From a virus (taxonomy: Duplodnaviria; Caudoviricetes): a stretch of DNA of 64,000 nt. Both the position numbers and the translations under genes were made by a program. This document shows, one piece after another, positions 16 through 55,740 of this stretch (positions are counted from its first letter, which is position 1; each line of letters opens with the position of its first letter). The notes under the pieces are model-generated. The model was not told where the DNA came from, searched no databases, and was given only the letters and a program-made list of their open reading frames with translations. Location of the stretch: the IMG/VR virus record IMGVR_UViG_3300011008_000034, positions 32,001 to 96,000 of that record. One strand, written 5' to 3'.

Positions 16-2481
16 TCAATAAACAATTTTTACAACAATAGGACCCTGATTGCCAAATGGTGCAGCTAATTCACAGTAATGGGGATTGGACATGTCAGTA
101 TAGAATACATTATTAGATACTTTAGTAGCTCCTTGAGAACCCATTACTTGAATAAAGCTTACATCAGCAAGATTATAACTTAAGAAATCTGCTGGTAAAT
201 TGGTATCATCGTAATCAATTTTTACTCTTGAACTAGAATCTACATCTGCAGCATCAAAATGAAATGTTAATGAATGAATAAAACCATTCTTTACAATTCT
301 TACAGTTCCAGCGGTTTTTGAAAATACTAGAGCATCTTCTTTATACGCATAATATTTACAATTTCCTGTTGGGTCTGTAAATTCTTGTAATTTATGTCCT
401 GCATTTTCAATTAAGCTGTCTACAGTTGTTTTATCATAAACATCTACTGTATCTGCTTTGTTTGCTAATAAGTTATTTGTTTCGGTTTTATTATAGATAT
501 CAGATTTTGTATAAACGTCTACAGAATCTGTTTTATTAGCGAGTAAGTTGTTAATTTCAGTTTGATTGTATGTTTCAGTTTTTAGATATACTAAATCTTT
601 TTGGATATAATTATTTAAATCTGGTTTATTAGTAATGTCATCCCAGTTTAAAGTAGTTGTATGATTAGTAGAAGATTCTAATTGGAATCCATTATTATTG
701 TAAACGTAAGTAGCAGAACCAGACCGTACACGAGAATCACCAGAAGCATCCTGAACAAAATATTCTTGACCGTCCTTTAGATTCATAAAGGGAATGGCAA
801 GTAAGTCTTCATATGTAGCTATAGTAGTGATTTCTTTATCTTCTAATACGCTATCTGGTAAGAATTGTTCAGGAATCTTTCCATTATTATCAAGTGGAAC
901 ATATCCATTAGCTACACCACGATTTGCGGAATTTTCAGGAGTATATCCGAGAGCATCTTGTTTTGCATTCCAAGCATTAATTTGAGATTCACTAACAAAT
1001 CTATGTACACTGTCTTCAATAATTTCAGCAGAAGAATGATTATGATTAACTAACGCTCTTTGGTCAAGTAAATCATTTACTTGTTGTTTTTGATAGAATA
1101 AATCTTTTGAATTAGTTAATGCATTATCAAATTTATTATCTACTTCAGACTTAGTATAAGTATCTAATTTATCAGCTTTTAAATCTAATTCAGAATGGAT
1201 TTGTGTATAATCTGCTTTTTTGGATAATTCTGAGTCAATATAATTTCTGGTATAAGTATTAGTAACTACGTTTTGTAATAATGTATCTACTTCTACTTTT
1301 TTATAGTAATCATCAAAATGAAGATTAGAGATAGCATCCCAATCTACTTGATTGAATTTATCATCTACATCAGTTTTCGTATAATAATCATTTAATAATG
1401 TATTAACTTCGTCTTTCGTATAAGTTTGAGAAGCATTGGCTTTTACTGATAAGAAGGAATCAATTTGAGACCGAGTATATGTATCAAGGATGCGATTATC
1501 TAATTCTGACTTGGTTACAAATATTGCGTTAATATCATCTTTGGAATAAGCAGATTCTACATCTAGTTTTAAGTCTAATTGGTTTTTTAGACTTTCATTT
1601 GTAACATACTTATTAGATAATTCTGTTTTGCTTACTTTTTCATTAATGGATAAATATAATGGGTCTGTAATTGAAACAGCTACTGGCGAATTTGGGTCAG
1701 TGGGTTCCTCACTTAACATAACATTGCCAAGCGAAGTGGCCGTAGCAATATTAGTTCGAGCATCATTATCAAAAGAATTCCAATTGCTACCGTCATTTGA
1801 ATATACCCATTTATCTAAATCTTCATTATACTTTATTCCTACTCTAGGCATTGAGCCACGATTAACGTAAATGCCGCAGTGTTCTACTGGAGTTCCAGTA
1901 TCTTCAGCATTTAATGTAAATGAAGCAGAATCCGTTCCAATGGAATTTGCTTTTGTAGCAATTAATGTTTTAGCTTCATCTAATGATAATTTATCATCTA
2001 AGATTGACTGTAAATCTGTGATTGCTTCAATTGTGTGACTGTTTTCTTTATTTCTATTTTGAAGTTCGTTATGATTTAATGGATATCCTCCAGCAGCATA
2101 TACTGGACGTGCATCATAAATCATATCATTTGTAATTACTTTTGTGGAAGATTTAATATACACAAAAGCAATTGGAAGTATATTCTGTCCAATATTTGGT
2201 ACTGAAGGATTATTATTGGATGGAACGCCATTTAATAATACAATCTTTCCTGCTTTATTTAATGCTACTAATACCCATTTTGCGCCTGAAGTAGGAGCGG
2301 TGATAACTGGGCTTTTTCCTCCAGCATATTCTATAAATTGAGAGTTGTTTATCCAAAACGAACCTTGTTTTATATTAATCGTCATATCAGGCGTGTTGTT
2401 CGCAGAAGGTTGGAACATTAATAACGCATAACTATCACGACGATATTCGTCTCCTTTTGGTGGACGGTTCATATGTTTCAC
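16..2481 (-). CDS. Virion structural / tail-fibre-like protein with YTKxEVD-type repeats
   Basis: 821 aa with many YTK(S/T/D)E(V/I)D/N repeats, an HRFVS..I..WN motif and a GVANGYVPLD..GKIP motif typical of phage tail/fibre proteins. Confidence 0.6.
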   Translation of the reverse strand: MKHMNRPPKGDEYRRDSYALLMFQPSANNTPDMTINIKQGSFWINNSQFIEYAGGKSPVITAPTSGAKWVLVALNKAGKIVLLNGVPSNNNPSVPNIGQNILPIAFVYIKSSTKVITNDMIYDARPVYAAGGYPLNHNELQNRNKENSHTIEAITDLQSILDDKLSLDEAKTLIATKANSIGTDSASFTLNAEDTGTPVEHCGIYVNRGSMPRVGIKYNEDLDKWVYSNDGSNWNSFDNDARTNIATATSLGNVMLSEEPTDPNSPVAVSITDPLYLSINEKVSKTELSNKYVTNESLKNQLDLKLDVESAYSKDDINAIFVTKSELDNRILDTYTRSQIDSFLSVKANASQTYTKDEVNTLLNDYYTKTDVDDKFNQVDWDAISNLHFDDYYKKVEVDTLLQNVVTNTYTRNYIDSELSKKADYTQIHSELDLKADKLDTYTKSEVDNKFDNALTNSKDLFYQKQQVNDLLDQRALVNHNHSSAEIIEDSVHRFVSESQINAWNAKQDALGYTPENSANRGVANGYVPLDNNGKIPEQFLPDSVLEDKEITTIATYEDLLAIPFMNLKDGQEYFVQDASGDSRVRSGSATYVYNNNGFQLESSTNHTTTLNWDDITNKPDLNNYIQKDLVYLKTETYNQTEINNLLANKTDSVDVYTKSDIYNKTETNNLLANKADTVDVYDKTTVDSLIENAGHKLQEFTDPTGNCKYYAYKEDALVFSKTAGTVRIVKNGFIHSLTFHFDAADVDSSSRVKIDYDDTNLPADFLSYNLADVSFIQVMGSQGATKVSNNVFYTDMSNPHYCELAAPFGNQGPIVVKIVY

Positions 2482-2811
2482 CTCATTTCATATTTAGTAT
2501 TTTTGCAAAAATAATAAATTAAATTTTTCTTCTAAAAATAAAATAAAAAATAAGTTTTGTTCTTATCTGAAAAAGGATGATAGATGTGTTTTTACAAAAC
2601 CTAGGATCAAGATTATTTCCTATTCATGTTGAGATTTTTCATAACATGCATTTAATTCAACATAATACATTGAATACTACTATTTTTACATTTTTTGCAT
2701 TTAATGAACGAAAAGGACAATATGATATTTTTTCATATAAAGGACAATGTTTTTCAGAATACAAAAAGCATTGCTTACGAGCTTGTATTTTTTTATAGGA
2801 GGGTGATGAAC

Positions 2812-3273
2812 ATGAAGATTAGAAATGATTTTGTGACGAATTCAAGTTCTAGTAGTTATATCATTACAACTAAATTAGATTTAGTTCCTAGGCCATTTTT
2901 AAAGTTAGATGATGTAAGCACCGAAGAAAACTTTATTAATTCTTTGTATAAAGTTGCATGTGTAGAATGCGGAAAACCATCTAATATATATGATAGCATA
3001 TTTGAAAAACATGGATTTAATGATATTCAGAAAAAAATTGCTTTATTATTAAGTGACGAATTCACAAATCGTAATTTTAATAGCGACAGTTACGGAACAA
3101 ATGAATATGCAAACATATTAGCAAACATGAATAATATATTAGGAGATTTAAGTGAAGAAGAAAAACACCGTCCTTTATATTTTACAGAAACTGTAGAGAA
3201 TTATGCTTTAGATAGAGTTCAATACATATTAGATGATAAATCTACGCGCATTATCTATAATTATAATCTGTAA
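2812..3273 (+). CDS. Hypothetical protein with N-terminal MKIRxDFVTNSSSSS motif
   Basis: AGGAGG RBS before ATG 2812; the recurrent phage/Firmicute motif KIRNDFVTNSSSSSYI. Confidence 0.7.
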   Translation: MKIRNDFVTNSSSSSYIITTKLDLVPRPFLKLDDVSTEENFINSLYKVACVECGKPSNIYDSIFEKHGFNDIQKKIALLLSDEFTNRNFNSDSYGTNEYANILANMNNILGDLSEEEKHRPLYFTETVENYALDRVQYILDDKSTRIIYNYNL

Positions 3274-3352
3274 TTTATTACCTTAATTTTTTTAACAATT
3301 ACTGCCTTTTTATTTTAAAAAGATATTTTTTATTTAAAAGGTGGTGATTTTT

Positions 3353-3541
3353 ATGAAGAAGGTGATTAGATATTTCCCAGGTATTCAACTGGAATTAAAT
3401 GAACAACAATTTATTATTAAAAAATATAATGAGGTTGATTGTTGGGATTTAAAAGATAATTTATTTTGTACTGTAATCGCCTCGAGTATTTTTGGAAAAA
3501 TTTTTGAATCTATGGTGAAAGAGATGTGTGAATGTGATTAG
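3353..3541 (+). CDS. Small hypothetical protein
   Basis: GGTG RBS; stop overlaps the start of nrdG. Confidence 0.5.
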   Translation: MKKVIRYFPGIQLELNEQQFIIKKYNEVDCWDLKDNLFCTVIASSIFGKIFESMVKEMCECD

Positions 3542-4013
3542 ATTTGCTGGTATAGAAGAAGAATCAACTGTTGATGGTGAGGGAATTCGTTTTGTATTAT
3601 TTTGTCAAGGATGCCCTCACCATTGTAAAGGATGCCATAATCCATCTACTTGGAGTTATGATAAAGGTGACTTTATATCTCCGGAAGAAATTTTATATAA
3701 AATGAAACAAAATGAATTATTAGACGGAATTACTTTGTCAGGTGGAGAACCTTTTGAGCAAGTTGATGAATTGTTACCATTACTAAAATTAATAACTCCT
3801 GAATATAATGTTTGGTCTTACTCAGGATATATATATGAAGATTTAATACAAGATACTAATAAAAAGAAATTATTGCAATACATTGATTATTTGATTGATG
3901 GTCCTTATATAGAAGATTTAAGAGATTTGACGTTACAATTTCGTGGGTCATTAAATCAAAGAATTATAAATGTACAAGAATCATTAAAACAAAATAAAGT
4001 CATGTTAAAATAG
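3528..4013 (+). CDS. nrdG: Anaerobic ribonucleotide reductase activating radical SAM protein
   Basis: DGEGIRFVLFCQGCPHHCKGCHNP, LSGGEPFEQ, DGPY and FRGSLNQRII motifs. Confidence 0.92.
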   Translation: MNVIRFAGIEEESTVDGEGIRFVLFCQGCPHHCKGCHNPSTWSYDKGDFISPEEILYKMKQNELLDGITLSGGEPFEQVDELLPLLKLITPEYNVWSYSGYIYEDLIQDTNKKKLLQYIDYLIDGPYIEDLRDLTLQFRGSLNQRIINVQESLKQNKVMLK

Positions 4014-25189: not shown

Positions 25190-25666
25190 TCAAATTAAAT
25201 CTTTAAATTTATTTTTAATTGTCTTTTCTATTTTTTGAGCATTTTCATTTATAATGTACTTTTTATTAAAAATTTCTTTATTAAAATAAACACAATAATT
25301 TTCATTATATTCAAATTTATCTTTTACATAAAAAGTTATTTTTAACGTATTTGTATTAATTATTGACAATCTTATATCATTTTTTTTATGATTTTCAATT
25401 CCTTCGTATAAAATAATTAAATCGTATTTTTTTAATAAAGTATTTTTTTCTTTTATCATTTCTCTATCAAAAAAAACAACATTTTTTTCACCTATACAAT
25501 CTATAGCATTTGTATAAAAATGAAAATACATTTTATCATTATCATTATTTTCTTCATTAAGAAGAGGATATATACAAATATGTTTTTTATGTTTTGCCAT
25601 TTTCATTAATTTTACAATTATTTTATTAGCAATTAATTGCATTCTTTCATTTTCAATATCAAACAT
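25190..25666 (-). CDS. Paralog family A protein
   Basis: Highly similar to 28414-28872; promoter at 25694-25725. Confidence 0.75.
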   Translation of the reverse strand: MFDIENERMQLIANKIIVKLMKMAKHKKHICIYPLLNEENNDNDKMYFHFYTNAIDCIGEKNVVFFDREMIKEKNTLLKKYDLIILYEGIENHKKNDIRLSIINTNTLKITFYVKDKFEYNENYCVYFNKEIFNKKYIINENAQKIEKTIKNKFKDLI

Positions 25667-25730
25667 CGTTCCTTACCTCCTTTTCTTATTTCCATTATAT
25701 CAAAAAAAAAGCTATTTGTAAATAGCTTTT

Positions 25731-26639
25731 TTATTTTGAGTTTTTCTTAAGATTATTTTTTGCATCATTATAGGCATCATTATATGATGAATATATATCA
25801 CAAATGTTATATCCTGATGAAAGTGTTATTCCATGTGATTTTATTTGATTTTTAATATCTTTAGGATTATTATCAATTTTTGTTATAAATGTATCTCTTA
25901 TTTTTAATTTATCTTTTGTATTATTTTCCATAATGTTACCACTAACATCATACATCCAAGATAATAATATTGTTTCAAAATTCCCGTTAGAATCATTTTT
26001 TGAAAATGGATACATTTCATTATAAAAAATAATTGGATAATCAACATCTAATTCAGAAATTTGTCTAGAAAAAAATCCTTCACAACCTTGATTATTATAA
26101 TATGCACGTTTATATTTATTTTCATCAAGTAAATATGAATATTCTGATTTTCTTATGTAATCAATGCAAGTTTCATCTGAAAAACTAGGTTCTAATATAT
26201 TAGGAACCTTAGATAAGCGCTTCATTCTTTTGAATAATTTAGACTCTTTTAAGTCTGGTCTTCTTTCAGATTCTGAACTAGATGTATCTTTATAGTAATA
26301 ATCAATTTCATCTGGATCATAACTATCAGAAATAGATTTATTAATCAAATCAAGTTCGCTTTTGCTATGAATAGTGTCATCTTTGATTATCTTGTCAAGA
26401 TGCGAATCTAAAGCTAACCGGTCATCATTGTAATTTTGATGAATATTGTTATCATATAAAAAATATTGTAAGATACTTTCGTCCCAATTAGAAAAATGGT
26501 CTCTCATCCATGTCCTAAACATTTTTCCAATTTTATCACATTCAATTACATCATCGTCAAAAATGTCTAAACAGTATTTCATAGTCACTATCACTGACTT
26601 TCTTTTCCTACGAGGCTTAGCAAGTCGTTTCAAAATCAA
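25731..26639 (-). CDS. Two-module protein (KRL start, internal second MKRLSK, C-half is family B)
   Basis: Internal MKRLSK...FSDETC...PIIFYNEMY aligns with 18663-19181; linker KDTSSSESERRPDL. Confidence 0.7.
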   Translation of the reverse strand: MILKRLAKPRRKRKSVIVTMKYCLDIFDDDVIECDKIGKMFRTWMRDHFSNWDESILQYFLYDNNIHQNYNDDRLALDSHLDKIIKDDTIHSKSELDLINKSISDSYDPDEIDYYYKDTSSSESERRPDLKESKLFKRMKRLSKVPNILEPSFSDETCIDYIRKSEYSYLLDENKYKRAYYNNQGCEGFFSRQISELDVDYPIIFYNEMYPFSKNDSNGNFETILLSWMYDVSGNIMENNTKDKLKIRDTFITKIDNNPKDIKNQIKSHGITLSSGYNICDIYSSYNDAYNDAKNNLKKNSK

Positions 26640-26896: not shown

Positions 26897-28303
26897 TTAC
26901 TTCTTTCTTCTTTTCTTAAAGACTTGGATTTCTTTTTCCTTTTTACCATCAATAATGGAGAAGATATTATTTGCAAATAATTCGCGATATCCCCAAACAA
27001 CTACTTCATCATCATTGTATTTATGGAACAAATCAAGATATTCATCAACAAAATCATCGTCAATTAAATACTTAATCATATCTTCTTCGGACTTGAATTT
27101 ATTATTGTCCTTAGTAGTATTGGCAAACATCTCTAACATCTGAGGACAAATAACATTTGTATCATATTCCATCTGAAGAATTTTATATCCATTTTCTATC
27201 ATTTCTTTTTGATGATTTTCGTCTTTAGCGATTTCCATCATTTCTTCAGCTGTTTCTCTAAGTTTTTCTCTATCACTAACAATCATAAATGGATGTTCAA
27301 GATTATAATCATAATATGTCCGTCCAATAGCATTAATCTTATTATGCTTTGCCCAATGAATATCAAGAACTGGAATTGCTCCACAATTAATAATTTCACA
27401 AGCAGTGTATTCCATTCTATCACCATATTCTTCAGGATGTTTATCTAAATGGAAGAAAGTACATCCAAACATAATCTGTGATAATTCTTCCATAGTTTCA
27501 TCATGAATATATTCTTTATAAACCTCAGCCATTCCCTTTTCGTTTGGTTTTGGACCACGTTTTTTATCAGTCATATCAATAGCATAAGGATTATCGTATA
27601 CGTCGGTTTTCGCTCCCAAAGATCTCTCAATACCTTTTAATACAATTTTAAAATCAGGGTCCAATTCCTTAATGTAAGGTGATAAAAACAAAAGTCTATG
27701 AGGTTCTTTAGTAGATGTCCAACGACCTAAATACATAATTTGCTTTTTCTTATTAGTATTTGTGTTCCTAAATTTTGCTTGGTCTTCTAAATCAAACCAA
27801 AGAGACATCCGTTTTACACGATCTTTTTTAGATGGGAACATTTCCGAACAAGCTTTATTAAAGAAAGTAGTTGGTCCATATCCCATAATTAAATCCATAC
27901 TATTAAAAACCGGAATCATATAAGGGATTTTATCAATATAAGTTTTATGAACTTCATGGATAAAACCTACACGAATTGGATTATTTACTCCATTAATAAT
28001 TTTTTCATAAAAAGCTTTTACATATTCTGGACCAGATTTGATATACGGATATGAAAAGAAAATTACTACATCTTTTTGATTTAAATCTTCTTGCATTTTA
28101 TCTAAATCTTCAATTTTATATGGTGTATATCTAATATTATGAGAATTTGTACGAGACATTTTTTTCCCAGCATACCCATAAATTTGAAGGTCTACACCGT
28201 TTTTGTCGCACCATGTTTGAAGTTGATGTGCACAAAAAGAACATCCACAACCTTCTACACTTCGGCCTAATATTAATGCATATTTTTTGTCTTTGTAACT
28301 CAT
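26897..28303 (-). CDS. DNA alpha-glucosyltransferase homolog (T4 AGT-like GT-B)
   Basis: GRSVEGCG, SRTNSH, YLGRWTSTK, GIERS and MEYT..E...CG.IPV correspond to T4 AGT motifs (ARGLEGCG, RTSSH, IGRTTTWK, GLERS, LEYTHLELGACGTIPV). Confidence 0.85.
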   Translation of the reverse strand: MSYKDKKYALILGRSVEGCGCSFCAHQLQTWCDKNGVDLQIYGYAGKKMSRTNSHNIRYTPYKIEDLDKMQEDLNQKDVVIFFSYPYIKSGPEYVKAFYEKIINGVNNPIRVGFIHEVHKTYIDKIPYMIPVFNSMDLIMGYGPTTFFNKACSEMFPSKKDRVKRMSLWFDLEDQAKFRNTNTNKKKQIMYLGRWTSTKEPHRLLFLSPYIKELDPDFKIVLKGIERSLGAKTDVYDNPYAIDMTDKKRGPKPNEKGMAEVYKEYIHDETMEELSQIMFGCTFFHLDKHPEEYGDRMEYTACEIINCGAIPVLDIHWAKHNKINAIGRTYYDYNLEHPFMIVSDREKLRETAEEMMEIAKDENHQKEMIENGYKILQMEYDTNVICPQMLEMFANTTKDNNKFKSEEDMIKYLIDDDFVDEYLDLFHKYNDDEVVVWGYRELFANNIFSIIDGKKEKEIQVFKKRRKK

Positions 28304-28413
28304 TATATCATTCCTTTCTTATCTTATGAAAATTATAATAATTAATCTCCTTTCCATTTAAAATATAGAAAAAAAATGTATTTTTTATCGCTAACAAATT
28401 TAAAAATGTGTTA

Positions 28414-28872
28414 TTATGTTTTATTTTTTTGAGTTTTCATAGTTTTATATTTTTCATCATTAATTTTTATGCATTTATCATTCGTTACATTTTTATTGAA
28501 ATAAACTTGAAAATTTTTATTATATTCAAATGACGAGGTTATATAAAATGTAATTTTTACAGTATTCACATCAACGATTGTTAATTTTATGTCATTTTTC
28601 TTTGCATATTCAACTCCTTCATATAAAATAACAAAATCATATTTGTTCGTTCCATCATTTAATTTTCTTTTATTAATAAAATGTACTACTTTATCATTAA
28701 TGTAGTCAATTGCATTTGTAAAAAAGAAAAAATACATTTTATCATTATCTTCATTTAAAATTGAATATATACAAATAGAATTTTTATGTTTTGTTAATTT
28801 TAAAAAAGATAACATAATTTTATCAGCAATACTTTGTAATCTCATTTCTTCAATGTTATATATAATAATCAC
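28414..28872 (-). CDS. Paralog family A protein
   Basis: Closely similar to 25190-25666; promoter at 28889-28920. Confidence 0.7.
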   Translation of the reverse strand: MIIIYNIEEMRLQSIADKIMLSFLKLTKHKNSICIYSILNEDNDKMYFFFFTNAIDYINDKVVHFINKRKLNDGTNKYDFVILYEGVEYAKKNDIKLTIVDVNTVKITFYITSSFEYNKNFQVYFNKNVTNDKCIKINDEKYKTMKTQKNKT

Positions 28873-29002
28873 TTCCTTTCACGAATATATTATACCATAA
28901 AAAAAGTTATTTGTAAATAGCTTTTTATTTATTTGATTTTGATATATTTAAAATTTTTATAATCAGTTTTTCAATTTTCATTTTTCTTCTAATAAATCTG
29001 GC

Positions 29003-29036
29003 CTTCGTTCTGATTCGGAACTAGATGTGTCTTTTA
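29003..29036 (-). repeat. 34-bp direct repeat, copy downstream of iscB
   Basis: TAAAAGACACATCTAGTTCCGAATCAGAACGAAG; 2 mismatches to 30688-30721; diverged copy at about 26260-26293. Confidence 0.9.
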
Positions 29037-30488
29037 TTCAAAAACTAATCCTTGATTTCTTTTTAAGATTTTACATTCTTTTAGTTTTGCAAATCCTTTT
29101 TCAAAAGATTTACAAATAAGATATTTTTCGTGACTTGTTCCTTCACATATATATCTTTTTTGTTTATGTAAAAATATTGCTCCTGGATATAATCGTTCCA
29201 TTTGTTTATAAATATGTCTTCCTTGAACAACAATCAAATTACTTACATTTTGAGGATATTTTTTTGCATATTCTTCTAAAGAATCTACATTCTGTGCAGT
29301 CTTTTTATGACGATTTTTACACACTATTTTTGTTTTATAATAATATAGTCTATCAATTATTCGATAACACATTTTACGATCATGTCTTCTAAATTGCCTA
29401 ATATTATACTTATTTTCAATAATAGGTTGTTTATATTGATTTAAAGACGAAACAGCAATACACCAAGCATCAATATAGTGATCCTTATTTAATTCTAAAT
29501 CATTTCTAATTTGATAAGTTTCATAACCAGTTGTACAATTCAAGGGTAAGATTTGACTTAATTGTTCTATTAATTGATTTTTAATTTGATTTAATACAGA
29601 TAATGCACCATATTTTTTTAAAAGTCCACCATGTTTTTGAACACATTTTTTATCCCATTTTTTATCTTTATGAATTAAATCATGATGTTTAAAACATACA
29701 CCAGCAATATTATCTACAGTATCATTACCACCACGACTTCTCCAAATAACGTGATGATAATGTTCAATACCATGCTTACAAAATAAGCATTTTCCTTCTT
29801 GTTGATGATAAACATATTCTTCTTTATTTTTAAATCCAAATAACTTACCTTTAGCGTATTCCCAATTTTTAATATTAGGATTTTCCAATTTAGCTATATC
29901 AAATGAATTAATTTCTAATACCAATTCGGATATAGGTAAGAATTTTTGAATCTTTTTTACAAGATTAATATGCGTACGTAATAACTGAGTCGCAGTAGGA
30001 GTTAACCATCCTTCTTTCCGCTTACGATTACAAAAACGTGATTGTTTATTTTTGATTAATTTGAATTTTACATCAACGCTATAATGAGGTAACCGTCTAA
30101 TAATTACTCTATCTTTTTGCAAAGGAAAATATTTTTTAAATCTACGAATACGTTTTTTTCTTCTATAAAAACGTCTCATATATCTACTTGCACGACGATC
30201 GTCCATTAATGTTTTTATTTTTTTATTTCTAGTAGTTACATTACTAGAAAACAATTCATTACTTTTTTCATCAACAACACATAATCCAATATTTGTTCTT
30301 CCAGGATCTATTCCTAAGATACATTTTTGTGTTTTAGTATCAGATGTATCTCTAAGAAATTGAATGGTAAATGGTTTATATTCAACTATTTTTACCTCTT
30401 TTCTTTTTAACCATCTTTTTACTCTGCCATAACTATGACATGGCATTAATGGTTTTCCATTCTTATCTAAAACATAAATGCAATTCAT
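29034..30488 (-). CDS. iscB: IscB RNA-guided endonuclease (AT-rich copy)
   Basis: PLMP domain, RuvC-I GIDPG, Arg-rich bridge helix, RuvC-II E, HNH (HHVI..S.GG.D..DN...C..HH..IH), RuvC-III HYIDA. Confidence 0.93.
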   Translation of the reverse strand: MNCIYVLDKNGKPLMPCHSYGRVKRWLKRKEVKIVEYKPFTIQFLRDTSDTKTQKCILGIDPGRTNIGLCVVDEKSNELFSSNVTTRNKKIKTLMDDRRASRYMRRFYRRKKRIRRFKKYFPLQKDRVIIRRLPHYSVDVKFKLIKNKQSRFCNRKRKEGWLTPTATQLLRTHINLVKKIQKFLPISELVLEINSFDIAKLENPNIKNWEYAKGKLFGFKNKEEYVYHQQEGKCLFCKHGIEHYHHVIWRSRGGNDTVDNIAGVCFKHHDLIHKDKKWDKKCVQKHGGLLKKYGALSVLNQIKNQLIEQLSQILPLNCTTGYETYQIRNDLELNKDHYIDAWCIAVSSLNQYKQPIIENKYNIRQFRRHDRKMCYRIIDRLYYYKTKIVCKNRHKKTAQNVDSLEEYAKKYPQNVSNLIVVQGRHIYKQMERLYPGAIFLHKQKRYICEGTSHEKYLICKSFEKGFAKLKECKILKRNQGLVFE

Positions 30489-30494
30489 TAATTA

Positions 30495-30687
30495 TTTTCC
30501 TTCCTTATAAATAAGTGAAATTTTTAATGATTATAAACCACTGAATTTCTTAACAGTTTTAGTTTCCATGGCATTTATACATATAATCTCTGTAGAGCAT
30601 TCGAGCTTGGAATCACCCCAAGGTACACATGTATTCGACTATATATTTTGCCTAGATAGATACCCCTATTCATTAATCAGATCATTT
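30495..30687 (-). ncRNA. omegaRNA of the AT-rich iscB (minimal 5' stem plus putative guide)
   Basis: CTAGGC...ACCTTGGGTGATTCCAAGCTCG..GCTCT...GCCATGGAAAC resembles the omegaRNA core; lies directly upstream of iscB. Confidence 0.7.
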
Positions 30688-30721
30688 CTTCGTTCTGATT
30701 CGGAACTGGATGTATCTTTTA
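30688..30721 (-). repeat. 34-bp direct repeat, copy upstream of omegaRNA
   Basis: TAAAAGATACATCCAGTTCCGAATCAGAACGAAG. Confidence 0.9.
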
Positions 30722-30970
30722 AATAAAATAAACTACTTTATCATCTATTTTTATATGGTCGTTAAAAAACGTATAACTTTTTTCTTTTAAATGTATTGTT
30801 TTATGATTTTCCCTAAACTTATTGTGTAATACAATAGGGCGCTTAAATGGTCTTTTAATAATGATTTTATCGCGAATAACATCGTAAAAAATAATTTCGT
30901 CTAGCTTGACAATTTGTTTCTTATTAAATATAGCATGAAAAATTTTTTTAATGTAATTCCAAATAATCAT
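30719..30970 (-). CDS. Small hypothetical protein
   Basis: GAGGTG RBS before MIIW. Confidence 0.5.
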   Translation of the reverse strand: MIIWNYIKKIFHAIFNKKQIVKLDEIIFYDVIRDKIIIKRPFKRPIVLHNKFRENHKTIHLKEKSYTFFNDHIKIDDKVVYFI

Positions 30971-31165
30971 ATTTGCACCTCTTGCATATAGCATTTAATA
31001 AAATGTAAAAATTTAATTTTAAAATTTTCTTCCATATTAAAATTATAAATCTTTAGACAATTTTTAACATTCAGTTTTTAGAAAATTTGTTGTTAGCTAT
31101 TTACAATTGGTAATTATTGGTATATAATCAGTTTTGTAAATAGTTAGAGGAAAGGATGAAGCGCT

Positions 31166-31471
31166 ATGAATAATGTTGAGGTGTCCACTGAAAAATTGAT
31201 TGAGGAATCCATTGAGAGAGGCAGGAAATTCATTGAACGATTGAAAAAGTCTAAGCAAAACGTTGTAGATGCCTCGCAATACGTAGTTCCTAGAAATGTT
31301 ACCAAAGAAGAATTCCAAGAAGCAATTGACAGATTCAATATAGCAAATAATCAAGTAATAAATTGTAATATGGAACATTTTGATACGTCATGCATGAAAT
31401 TGACATTGGAAGAAACAGAACTGAACAAATTATTTTTAGCAGCAAAGCTTTACAAACAACAAATTGCATAA
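31166..31471 (+). CDS. Small helical protein (weak YaaL/DUF2508-like C-half)
   Basis: Promoter at 31097-31128, RBS, terminator after the stop. Confidence 0.65.
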   Translation: MNNVEVSTEKLIEESIERGRKFIERLKKSKQNVVDASQYVVPRNVTKEEFQEAIDRFNIANNQVINCNMEHFDTSCMKLTLEETELNKLFLAAKLYKQQIA

Positions 31472-31612
31472 CAAGAATGAGGAGGACAGTAGATTGTCCT
31501 CCTTTTTGAATTTGCGATAACTTTTTTCGTAAAAAACTATTTACAAATATTGTAAAATGTGATACAATAAATTCAGGTAAAAAAAATAAGGTTTATGAAA
31601 GGAAGAAAAATT

Positions 31613-32860
31613 ATGGCGAAAAAAGAAACAATGAACACTGTCAATTATTATTCAATGACTCCTGATGAAATTGTTGAAATGTTCCCTATTATGTATTCAG
31701 GTGAGGATTTTGCAGACCAGCCTACGAAAATGCTTTGGGGGCCTCCGGGTGTGGGAAAATCCCAAGCAGTAAAACAATTTGGTGAACGTCTTGAACAAAT
31801 TACAGGAAAAACTGTAGAAGTTCATGTGGTTTCATTATTGTTAATGTCTCCGATTGATTTGAGAGGTATTCCTTCTAAATCACAAAAGGAAATTTACCTT
31901 AATGATGAAAAAACTACAGTAGATGTAGCAAAATGGCTGCCACCTGATATTTTCCAAATGAATCCGAGCAAAAATCATATTAATATTTTGTTCTTGGATG
32001 AAATTTCTGCAGCACCTCCCAGTGTGCAAGCAGCAGCATATCAGATTGCATTAGATAAAAGAGTAGGAGAATTTAAACTTCCTAAAAATTGTGTAGTAAT
32101 TTGTGCGGGCAATCGTACAACTGATAAAGCAGTTGCTTATACAATGCCAAAACCTCTTGCAAATCGTATGACACATATTGAGATTGTTTCAAATATTGAT
32201 TCTTGGAGAGTTTGGGCATTCCAAAATGAAGTTGACCCACTTGTCATTTCATTTATTCTGAAAAATCCTGGTAATTTAAATACTTTTTCTACTAATAATG
32301 ATGATGTAGCATTTGCAACACCTCGTTCATGGGAAATGGTAAATTCTTATATTAAACTTGCAAAAAATCGTGGGATTATTGATGATATCTCAGATTTAAG
32401 AGGAAATGACTATTCTCAGAATAAACAATTATTTACGTTGTTTAAAATGATTGCGGGTTCAGTGGGAATGGGAATTGCAAATGAATTTAGAGCATTCTTA
32501 AGTGTACATAAATATTTGCCTGAATTTAAGGATATTGCAAATGAAAAAGTAAAAGAAGTGGATAAAAAAATCCTTGATAGAATTGATGTATTATATGCAC
32601 TTTGCTCGATGGTAACTGCAGGCGTAATTCGTTTTGCTAAAGAAATTCCTGATGAAAAATTAGTTGAAAGAACGACTCAGCTTAAAGTTGATAAATTCTT
32701 GACTATTATTGGTAAATATATTGAGACAATTCCCAATGCTGAAATGAAAGCAAAAATTGTCCAAGATATTTACGCTAGTGTAAGCAAACCTTTCGGGTCT
32801 ATCATCAATAAAAATAAAGGATTCAATTCATCCTTTGCAGCAGTGGCAAAATTCCTTTAA
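31613..32860 (+). CDS. MoxR-like AAA+ ATPase
   Basis: Walker A GPPGVGKS, DLRGIP, Walker B LFLDE, AGNR, LANR, TPRSWE; promoter at 31537-31568. Confidence 0.9.
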   Translation: MAKKETMNTVNYYSMTPDEIVEMFPIMYSGEDFADQPTKMLWGPPGVGKSQAVKQFGERLEQITGKTVEVHVVSLLLMSPIDLRGIPSKSQKEIYLNDEKTTVDVAKWLPPDIFQMNPSKNHINILFLDEISAAPPSVQAAAYQIALDKRVGEFKLPKNCVVICAGNRTTDKAVAYTMPKPLANRMTHIEIVSNIDSWRVWAFQNEVDPLVISFILKNPGNLNTFSTNNDDVAFATPRSWEMVNSYIKLAKNRGIIDDISDLRGNDYSQNKQLFTLFKMIAGSVGMGIANEFRAFLSVHKYLPEFKDIANEKVKEVDKKILDRIDVLYALCSMVTAGVIRFAKEIPDEKLVERTTQLKVDKFLTIIGKYIETIPNAEMKAKIVQDIYASVSKPFGSIINKNKGFNSSFAAVAKFL

Positions 32861-53818: not shown

Positions 53819-53968
53819 TTTTACACACTCCTTTCTAATGGAATATATAAAAAAAGGAGAGATTTAAATCTCTCCTTTTTCAGTAAATGCATATTTATTT
53901 TATCCTCTCTGCGACCAGAAGACCCTCGCCTCTATAGGCGGGAGATGAATGGTCACGCCACAATATTT

Positions 53969-55495
53969 CTAAACATATACTAAAGATTTTCGTTGCACGA
54001 CAATACAATCCCGTGCGGGAAAATTCCTTTGTTCTTGCCCATAAGCCCTGTAATACTGATTATTAGTCAGGCTGCCTGTCATGGTATACCTTTGTTTTTG
54101 GAAAAGGAATGTCGCACCAGCCAGAATTCGTTCTGTATTATTGTATCTACGAAAAGATTTCACAACTTGGACTTTCGACAATTCCATGCGAGCCTGTCGG
54201 CGTCCAACTTTTTCACAAAGTTGCTTATACCAATCGCTTAGTGCAGGAACCTTCTCGTCTTGTTCGAAACGGGGTTTTCGATTTTTGGCTACGACCTCGA
54301 ATATAGGTTTTTCTGTTTCTTTTTTGCCTTTTTTAACCTTTTTTGTACCGACACACATCTTGTAAGTTCGTTCGCACTGAGCTTTGATGTTAGCCCTGTC
54401 ATGGTTTCTGAACTGCATAATCTCAAAGGGTTGGCTGCCGTCATACCGTAAAGGGAGGCTTCCTCTTAAAGCTGCTATGCAGGCAGCGTCAGCATTATGT
54501 TCCTTGACAATATTATGCTCCTCACGGAAATGTGCGGTTTCAAAGCCACGGCAGATATGCAGATTGTTTCCGAACATTGTCAAAAGTTCGTCATAGATAA
54601 ACGGCATGGCAATATTGACGATGGACGCTCCCGCATATTTTTTCTTCTTTCCAATACTGTCGAGCAATGCTCGATTTGTATGGACTTTATTATGACATTC
54701 GTTGCACAGTCCCACGATGTTTTCGGGCGTGTCGCTGCCGCCCTCGTGCCGTGGAACGATATGGTGGTGGTGCTCGATATTACCACCACACAACACGCAG
54801 CGACCGTCCTGCAAATAGTCGATATAAGCATTGATATTGGAAAAGCCCTTCATTCGCCCGTTCTGGAAGTCCATGCCCCGAACAGAGTCATCTTCCAGCA
54901 ACATGAACGCAAACTTGTTGTACTCCAAAGTCCAGTGTGTCACGGACAAAATCCTGCAAATCTGTTTCACCATATTGATATGCGTTTGGACGCACTGTCT
55001 TGCGGTCGGGGTTATCCAGTTTGCGGGACGTTTTCGGTGGCAAAATTTTGCCTCCGTGTTGGTGATGTCCTTCACTTGGAGGACACCGTTCTCGTATTTC
55101 GGGAGCTTCCGTCCTTCAGGAAAGTCTGTTATTGTGCCGTTTTTCTTTGCACGACGCTTCCTGCGAAGACGCTCGCCACGGCGAGAAGCCTGCCGATGGG
55201 CCTTGCGGTTTTTCATCAGCTTTGGAATCCCTTTGTTTCTGGTGGCAACGTGGGCCTCATAAACAACCTCTCCTTTCTGATTGACCACAGCCTCGCCGAT
55301 GTTGGTTCTACCGGGGTCAGTGCCACCGTAAAGGGGCTGGGTATAATTATCGGACTCGTACAAAAGCTGTATGACGAACGGCTTCGTTGAAACAGCTTTT
55401 GCCTGCCCAAAGTTAAGCAGCCTCCGTACATGACCGAACCTTTTGGTTGGCATGAGCGGGTTGCCGTTCTTGTTCAAAACATAAACTACATACAT
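53969..55495 (-). CDS. iscB: IscB RNA-guided endonuclease (GC-rich copy)
   Basis: PLMP, GTDPG, Arg-rich helix, LE, HHIVPR..GG.D...N...LC..CH..VH, HNADA; AAGGAG RBS before MYVVYV. Confidence 0.93.
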   Translation of the reverse strand: MYVVYVLNKNGNPLMPTKRFGHVRRLLNFGQAKAVSTKPFVIQLLYESDNYTQPLYGGTDPGRTNIGEAVVNQKGEVVYEAHVATRNKGIPKLMKNRKAHRQASRRGERLRRKRRAKKNGTITDFPEGRKLPKYENGVLQVKDITNTEAKFCHRKRPANWITPTARQCVQTHINMVKQICRILSVTHWTLEYNKFAFMLLEDDSVRGMDFQNGRMKGFSNINAYIDYLQDGRCVLCGGNIEHHHHIVPRHEGGSDTPENIVGLCNECHNKVHTNRALLDSIGKKKKYAGASIVNIAMPFIYDELLTMFGNNLHICRGFETAHFREEHNIVKEHNADAACIAALRGSLPLRYDGSQPFEIMQFRNHDRANIKAQCERTYKMCVGTKKVKKGKKETEKPIFEVVAKNRKPRFEQDEKVPALSDWYKQLCEKVGRRQARMELSKVQVVKSFRRYNNTERILAGATFLFQKQRYTMTGSLTNNQYYRAYGQEQRNFPARDCIVVQRKSLVYV

Positions 55496-55499
55496 TCCA

Positions 55500-55740
55500 A
55501 AAATCTCCTTTAGAGATAAATCGTCGCAGTTGCGACGTAAGATTGCCATAGACTCGGTGCAGCCTTAGAGTTTCGGGAGGCTTGGCATTACCCCCGGTTC
55601 TGGAGTTGCATCGCCCAACGGATATTTCTGTCGGAATCCCGTGCTTTCGTTATCACGGGTGTCTCTGCTCAACAACGCCCACTCGGGACTTGTTTCCAAG
55701 CCCCCGCTTCAGATGCGAAGCATTAAGCGGGGTTGTTGAC
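55500..55740 (-). ncRNA. omegaRNA scaffold of the GC-rich iscB
   Basis: GTCAACAACCCC...GGGGCTTG...GTTGTTGAGCAGAGAC...ACCGGGGGTAATGCCAAGCCTCCCG...GTCTATGGCAA. Confidence 0.85.

Follow-up and report, generated by a model that had tools for sequence, protein, structure and literature searches.

The question raised by this locus is what an intact iscB gene is doing in a phage genome between two nearly identical 34-nt direct repeats. IscB proteins are of the type ancestral to Cas9, and their known natural role is to hold IS200/IS605 transposons in place. The gene discussed here, encoding IscB1, lies in a 64,000-nt window corresponding to positions 32001-96000 of a 177,647-bp IMG/VR virus record (IMGVR_UViG_3300011008_000034), and the contig carries three IscB genes in total (IscB1, IscB2 and IscB3). 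The cassette formed by iscB1 and its omegaRNA is tentatively interpreted as a resident, transposase-free, homing-type RNA-guided nuclease directed against IscB-free relatives of the phage. An earlier, sequence-only reading had described a domesticated IscB bracketed by the repeats, with a guide aimed at an allele of competing phages. Only parts of that description are retained below.

IscB1 has a match to the Pfam domain RRXRR (E-value: 3e-49) and aligns along its full length with OgeuIscB (PDB 7xht and 7utn; residues 2-481 versus 3-492, approximately 48% identity, E-value: 5e-124). It includes the PLMP motif (KPLMP, residues 12-16). In an alignment of 23 IscB homologues this motif is invariant, and the RuvC residues D61, E192, H337 and D340 and the HNH residues H245, H246, N260 and H269 are unchanged throughout. 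IscB1 can be classified as an IscB by its domains (PLMP, split RuvC with bridge helix, inserted HNH and C-terminal TAM-interacting domain; TAM, target-adjacent motif), with intact RuvC and HNH catalytic residues, and is predicted to carry out RNA-guided, TAM-dependent DNA cleavage. The coding sequence is AT-rich, as first described, with a GC content of 26%, compared to 26% for IscB2, 47% for IscB3 and 28% for the genome. The ratio of nonsynonymous to synonymous substitution rates (dN/dS) is 0.15 against an orthologue from another sample (L005, 95% amino acid identity) and 0.19 against a second (L006, 82% identity). Between IscB1 and IscB2 it is 0.19 over the N-terminal 373 codons and 0.89 in the C-terminal part, which reads the TAM. 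Because the gene is under purifying selection and has been ameliorated towards the AT-rich composition, IscB1 appears to be a long-resident gene kept by selection, in keeping with the proposed domestication. A programmed -1 frameshift adding a KDTSSS tail to IscB was considered and rejected, as that frame has a TGA two codons upstream and is broken in L006.

The repeats themselves are as initially described. The two flanking copies (A, 5' of the cassette, and B, 3' of it) differ at 2 of 34 nt (shuffles expect 0 matches), and each opens at a TAA stop codon. A third copy (C, 26260-26291) lies inside gene 25731-26639, and the 177-kb contig has exactly these three. Direct reading of the sequence also confirmed that the 18 nt past A and past B differ at 10 positions. 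Both flanking copies encode KDTSSSESERR in the -1 frame, as had been noted; this reading is not conserved for B, since in L006 a 2-nt deletion just past the repeat breaks the frame.

The origin of the repeats becomes apparent from relatives of the phage. In eight IscB-free contigs from other samples (L056, L057, L058, L062, L293, L294, L295 and the P0146 contig), a 91-aa gene, homologues of which were found in many samples, is directly followed by a small, conserved gene here called geneX and then by a terminator. In these relatives geneX starts 15 nt past the 91-aa gene, after TAAAAGAGGTGATTAATTTTG. The flanking genes of L058 are 92-96% identical to those of the window at the nucleotide level. 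Fifteen geneX homologues were collected, encoding proteins of 118-148 aa with the exception of one 77-aa fragment, and 11 of them have a C-terminus of the KDTSSSESxRRPDLLE type (...YKDTSSSESxRRPDLLEE). In the window, the order is 91-aa gene, repeat A and a 32-nt tail, omegaRNA core, iscB, and the last 19 codons of geneX (repeat B); the ribosome-binding site (RBS) and codons 1-116 of geneX have been replaced by everything from repeat A to iscB. Given this gene order and collinearity, both repeats are geneX sequence. Repeat B and the DNA downstream of it align collinearly with the end of geneX and its terminator in L058, which identifies B as the native geneX 3' end; the same segment is also found 3' of iscB in L005, L006 and L055. 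A and B share a derived TTCCGAA, where all other alleles have TTCTGAA or TTCAGAA, and A is therefore a recent copy of B rather than a separate allele. The A-rich microhomology TAAAAGA is used at both junctions, with TTTAAAAGA and GAATAAAAGA joined to geneX TATAAAGA, which explains why the repeats start at stop codons. By allele comparison, then, the flanking repeats are remnants of a displaced gene; they are neither target duplications nor a bracket made by the element. This origin is a caution for similar loci, as gene remnants can produce a repeat bracket without any transposition. The locus is polymorphic for presence or absence of the cassette at a single position with conserved flanks, the eight empty contigs contrasting with the occupied alleles of the window phage, L005, L006 and L055. 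The 302-aa product of the gene bearing copy C, in which geneX codons 1-130 are fused to another module, differs from all 15 geneX homologues, which are short (77-148 aa).

IscB1 is not a mobile IS200/IS605 element. Its stop codon directly abuts geneX sequence, leaving no non-coding 3' end, and a search of the 177-kb contig, a record whose completeness is estimated by CheckV at 36%, returned no Y1 transposase TnpA (PF01797). Instead of the two-ended hairpins of IS200/IS605 elements there is a hairpin on the omegaRNA side only, built from phage gene sequence. In place of a scarless empty site, relatives have an RBS and 116 geneX codons at the position of the cassette. The earlier statement that the element lacks end hairpins is thus correct for the 3' side, and does not hold for the 5' side, where this 20-bp hairpin (30658-30717) is located.

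The omegaRNA core 5' of iscB was mapped manually on the architecture of OgeuIscB (Table 1). For covariation, five phage-type omegaRNAs were compared: w1 (IscB1), w2 (IscB2), those of L005 and L006, and the second omegaRNA of contig L063 (L063w). The pseudoknot has compensatory variants among these copies (UUCCA:UGGAA, UCCCA:UGGGA and CUCCA:UGGAG), position 4 of the pseudoknot hairpin alternates between G-C and A-U, and the central stem of L063 is AUAUAUAAUUUC:GAAAUUAUAUAU. These compensatory changes suggest that the core is a maintained, reduced omegaRNA. Its sequence has diverged too far for model-based detection: an Rfam search of positions 28000-32000 with E-values up to 1 returned no family, HEARO included, and w1 was not detected by covariance model R1, which was built from 28 Ogeu-type omegaRNAs and kept only 10 consensus pairs. 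RNAalifold on ten upstream regions, from bacteria and from IscB3, recovered the pseudoknot hairpin alone, the MAFFT alignment of the 5' domains being poor.

Between the 91-aa gene and the core, repeat A and the 32-nt tail, which is an imperfect inverted copy of A, fold into a long hairpin (-18.2 kcal/mol, z -3.56, equalled by 0 of 200 shuffles). Its pairs include G-U pairs, and copies B and C have no comparable fold. The hairpin ends 2-4 nt 5' of AGGC and the nexus stem, as do the adaptor hairpins of Ogeu-type omegaRNAs. Natural guide adaptor hairpins of 43 nt (PMC9640706) and 68 nt (PMC13180657) have been described, and those at Ogeu-type loci in IMG/VR measure 42-52 nt and are followed by AC-AGGC. 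In position and length the hairpin corresponds to an omegaRNA guide adaptor hairpin, and it is a candidate for that role.

IscB guides usually correspond to the flank adjoining the inserted DNA. At the foot of the hairpin (30714-30719), after TTTAAAAGA, the similarity to the empty sites ends, and positions 30718-30733 are the last DNA shared with IscB-free relatives. Following the flank rule, the guide would be 30718-30733. This 16-mer is perfectly matched in L056, L058 and L062, where it is followed by AGAGGT; the phage's own copy is followed by AGATAC. In full, L058-type sites read GTTTATTTTATTTAAAAGAGGTGATT and the self-type site reads AAAAGATACATCC. Four candidate 16-mers were compared to the contig and to the relatives. 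One of these, the last 16 nt of repeat A, was rejected because it matches B perfectly and would be self-targeting, and because no hairpin separates it from the nexus.

The model proposed for the cassette is the following. An intact IscB-omegaRNA cassette, having lost its transposon ends, is resident in a lineage of rumen megaphages. The hairpin of repeat A and its tail would act as the guide adaptor hairpin, and the 16 nt immediately 5' of it, at the end of the 91-aa gene, as the guide. The resulting ribonucleoprotein would cut IscB-free relatives at the junction of the 91-aa gene and geneX, which bears the same 16 nt, and recombination via the 91-aa gene and the geneX 3' end would then copy the cassette in, giving homing without a transposase.

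A number of observations weigh against this model. Because the upstream gene is conserved, 30718-30733 matches the relatives by construction. Both the phage's own site and the empty sites read AAAAGA in some registers, fitting the OgeuIscB TAM (NWRRNA), so self-avoidance is not accounted for. The omegaRNA of IscB2 (w2) has no significant 5' hairpin, which suggests that adaptor hairpins may be dispensable in this phage branch, and the adaptor hairpin of L063w is only 8 bp. Whole Logan contigs of three metagenome runs end at 30649, 30654 and 30656, between the hairpin and the nexus, and in the P0153 contig (sample ERZ27256908, 3131 bp) the same IscB (at least 90% identical) is preceded, across a gap of 316 nt, by a different gene; the 5' module may accordingly be exchangeable or lie outside the conserved RNA. 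The exact arrangement is found only in the window phage (and the identical L061) and in one 583-nt contig, which is 96% identical and runs from the 91-aa gene through A and its tail to 30656.

A more specific, and rather doubtful, version is that the 5' module of the omegaRNA was rebuilt from phage DNA, a geneX copy and its inverted copy providing the adaptor and the end of the upstream gene the guide, with modules being exchanged by recombination at 30655/30656, the adaptor/nexus boundary at which the contigs of three metagenomes break. If true, module exchange would be a natural way, needing no transposase, for an RNA-guided homing nuclease to be retargeted among competing megaphages.

The alternatives to the homing model differ mainly in where they place the guide, or in whether a guide survives. 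The best placed of them, although itself unlikely, is that the cassette is crippled or has no guide. Recent templated repair, in which B was copied and the copy snapped back, would have replaced the guide and adaptor, leaving IscB1 of this strain with no useful target or borrowing another omegaRNA, and the open reading frame (ORF) would be intact only because the event is recent. The near-identity of A to B and the inversion of A in the tail are the pattern expected of templated repair, and several microhomology deletions occur in the region. Furthermore, the signal of purifying selection comes from L005 and L006, which were read without the 5' parts of their omegaRNAs. However, in the independent 96%-identical contig the 91-aa gene is likewise followed by A and the tail, as far as 30656, meaning that the arrangement has persisted over approximately 4% divergence, and the G-U pairs and canonical adaptor position of the hairpin are unlikely to have arisen by accident.

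The other two placements of the guide, each considered improbable, overlap the long hairpin. In the sequence-only reading the guide was 30670-30687, beside a 5-bp adaptor stem (ATAGG-GGTA-TCTAT), and it was thought to target an RNDLINE-type geneX allele of rival phages, sparing the RPDL copies of the phage itself. The end of this small stem, too, lies 2 nt before AGGC, and small adaptors are tolerated in this branch, judging from the 8 bp of L063w and their absence from w2. Read in frame, the tail gives RNDLINE, and one geneX homologue (P0132) has an RRNDLLED tail; in addition, cleavage of the long hairpin by a nuclease specific for double-stranded RNA could free this stretch as a 5' end. The stem itself is not significant (-1.2 kcal/mol, z +0.9, with 171 of 200 shuffles folding as well), and the proposed guide is paired within the far stronger hairpin. 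The corresponding 16-mer, ATGATCTGATTAATGA, is unmatched elsewhere in the contig with up to 1 mismatch and in the geneX genes of relatives with up to 3. Its 111 exact matches in IMG/VR have unrelated flanks without the SSSES context, and the P0132 DNA differs from the guide. No RNDLINE allele occurs among the 15 geneX homologues (11 being of the RRPDLLE type), and the tail resembles geneX segments (RPDLLEE, LDLINK and DYYY) only weakly and not significantly, with a best p of 0.04. Neither the proposed guide nor its non-self target has been borne out by these comparisons.

The second of these improbable placements dispenses with the adaptor hairpin. The omegaRNA unit would run from 30655 (CUAGGCA...), with the guide GAATAGGGGTATCTAT at 30656-30671, and repeat A would be a cis anti-guide or a by-product. 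The three runs with contigs ending at the hairpin-nexus boundary would be the signature of a unit present in more than one context, the different upstream gene of P0153 fits the same picture, and w2 would be a precedent for the missing hairpin. IscB1 also lacks equivalents of Y101 and H105, the OgeuIscB residues in contact with the adaptor/nexus junction (PMC9640706). On the other hand, no characterised IscB functions without an adaptor stem, engineered truncations retaining 11 bp (PMC13180657), and pairing within the hairpin would keep the guide sequestered. The 16-mer is also without a match in the rest of the contig (up to 1 mismatch) or in relatives (up to 3). Finally, an ordinary mobile IS200/IS605-type insertion with a made or captured target duplication, as might be suggested by the presence of IscB3 in the same genome, is highly improbable, being already contradicted by the absent 3' end (zero DNA between the IscB1 stop and geneX sequence) and at odds with the AT amelioration of IscB1, a contig without TnpA, the origin of the repeats as host-gene remnants and the established fact that this family makes no target duplications.

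The system most similar to IscB1 is OgeuIscB-omegaRNA (PDB 7xht and 7utn; Kato et al. 2022, PMC9640706). The two share full-length protein homology, the RuvC and HNH residues, the PLMP motif and, by manual mapping, an omegaRNA 5' of the ORF with a CCA:UGG pseudoknot, a pseudoknot hairpin and nexus and central stems. They differ in that the IscB1 core is reduced to approximately 167 nt, lacks stem-loop 3 and falls outside both Rfam and the 28-RNA model, in that the adaptor position is held by a hairpin of phage gene sequence, and in that the equivalents of Y101 and H105 have been substituted or lost. A system described in 2023 (doi 10.1101/2023.03.14.532601) resembles the homing model in that its guide derives from the flank at the omegaRNA end and its target is the element-free allele, an orientation which fits the upstream gene here. 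Unlike that system, the IscB1 locus has no TnpA, no end hairpin past the ORF and no scarless empty site; its occupied allele has lost 116 host codons, and it could spread only via recombination between co-infecting phages. The free-standing homing endonucleases of T-even phages (SegF, SegB and Mob; intronless homing, for a review see PMC13565253) are likewise encoded by nuclease genes wedged between conserved phage genes, present or absent among close relatives, with homologous flanks for copy-in repair. Recognition in the present case would be guided by RNA rather than by protein, and cleavage of the empty allele is predicted from a single 16-nt match. Within the same phage, IscB3 belongs to the same family and differs from IscB1 (36% identity) in having 47% GC, a canonical omegaRNA, a 3' end with a hairpin and a clean flank/TAM (ATAAAA).

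Homing of OMEGA systems between co-infecting phages has been proposed in reviews (PMC13565253), where it is anticipated and not demonstrated. An IscB without ends or transposase, under purifying selection and polymorphic at one locus, fits the expectation for a nuclease used in RNA-guided homing or in competition between co-infecting phages. The locus also offers material for testing: an occupied allele, several natural empty alleles and three explicit candidate guides.

Table 1. Features of the IscB1 locus and of the other IscB genes of the contig (window positions, except for IscB2).
Feature	Position	Strand	Basis or remark
302-aa gene, geneX codons 1-130 fused to another module; bears copy C	25731..26639	(-)	ORF list, geneX homologues
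Terminator-like palindrome and strong promoter (TTTACA-17-TATAAT) of next gene	28889..28930	(-)	
Leftover geneX tail (RPDLLEEK, stop)	28978..29002	(-)	agrees with P0123-P0131 C-termini
Repeat B, native geneX 3' segment; meets iscB stop at GAATAAAAGA	29003..29036	(-)	L058 collinearity
iscB (IscB1), 484 aa, intact	29034..30488	(-)	ORF list, Pfam, structure alignment, 23-sequence alignment, dN/dS
OmegaRNA core, ~167 nt	30489..30655	(-)	manual mapping on OgeuIscB architecture
RBS	30499-30506	(-)	
Terminal hairpin	around 30519-30547	(-)	
Pseudoknot TTCCA : TGGAA	30608-30612 : 30564-30568	(-)	
Pseudoknot hairpin TTGGGG : CTCGAA	30616-30621 : 30600-30605	(-)	
Central stem AUAUAUAGUC:GAUUAUAUGU	30637-30646 : 30579-30588	(-)	
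Nexus stem GGCA : TGCC	30649-30652 : 30570-30573	(-)	
32-nt unique tail, imperfect inverted copy of repeat A; hairpin 3' strand; holds guide of the sequence-only reading	30656..30687	(-)	
60-nt hairpin, 20 bp (AGAUAC..AAUCAGA / UCUGAUU..GUAUCU)	30658..30717	(-)	folding versus shuffles
Repeat A, secondary copy of geneX KDTSSSESERR segment; hairpin 5' strand	30688..30721	(-)	repeat search, allele comparison
Best candidate guide, 16 nt GTTTATTTTATTTAAA, directly 5' of long hairpin (putative role)	30718..30733	(-)	
91-aa ORF, 5' of cassette	30719..30994	(-)	ORF list; homologues P0121/P0122 and 19 cluster members
Native promoter	near 31113-31140		
IscB3 element	~53904-55740; ORF 53987-55495	(-)	36% identical to IscB1, 47% GC
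IscB2, 506 aa	ORF contig 2062-3582; locus C1:1826-3582 (L002)		outside window

The host phage is a rumen-type megaphage, since geneX homologues are found on contigs of 420 and 504 kb and near-identical words are present in sheep and cattle gut metagenomes. With the standard genetic code, 83% of the contig lies within ORFs of at least 150 aa, and the stop codons of 122 long ORFs are TAA (81), TGA (36) and TAG (5). TAG recoding in this part of the megaphage was rejected because reading TAG as sense hardly lengthens the ORFs and the standard code already gives this coding density. Megablast of the 10-kb region against GenBank phages gave no match, and scanning IMG/VR for the repeat motif, for the omegaRNA core and for the IscB1 protein returned none. 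A relaxed pattern for the core gave 30 matches in IMG/VR, all attributable to chance, and a junction 19-mer gave two, both unrelated. A scan of JGI metagenomes for the repeat returned L055 as its sole match. L061 is 100% identical to the window phage and, being the same phage, is not an independent sample.

The locus lies in an early-gene region that is plastic and prone to recombination. In a contig of run X3 the iscB stop is joined to DNA past the glycosyltransferase gene via the 8-nt GAATAAAA (window 26888/29032). L055 and a contig of run X1 share a deletion by which the 152-aa gene, at its start, has become joined to the C-terminus of the glycosyltransferase (window 27037/28814), and in another X1 contig the same terminator follows a short geneX allele that is intact. 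Two paralogous modules (25190-25768 and 28414-28963; 71-76% identical) each consist of a terminator palindrome, a TTTACA-17-TATAAT promoter and a 152/158-aa gene, and probably serve as local recombination substrates.

The remaining IscB loci differ in character. IscB3 looks like a canonical, recent transposon-type arrival, unlike IscB1 and IscB2. Its omegaRNA is 245 nt long and GC-rich, starting at GTCAACAACCC (GTCAAC) past an AT-rich flank, and its 3' end consists of approximately 80 nt with a hairpin, followed by ATAAAA. IscB2 is 75% identical to IscB1 over the first 420 residues; its omegaRNA, homologous to w1, contains an additional hairpin of 33 nt, and the stop codon of IscB2 lies directly against the RBS of the following gene. 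On the JGI contig L063, a second complete phage-type omegaRNA (L063:976-1196) lies approximately 20 nt past the stop of an IscB that is 67% identical. It has no iscB behind it, the next gene being unrelated and encoding at least 295 aa, and it may be a solo omegaRNA that gives the phage an extra guide.

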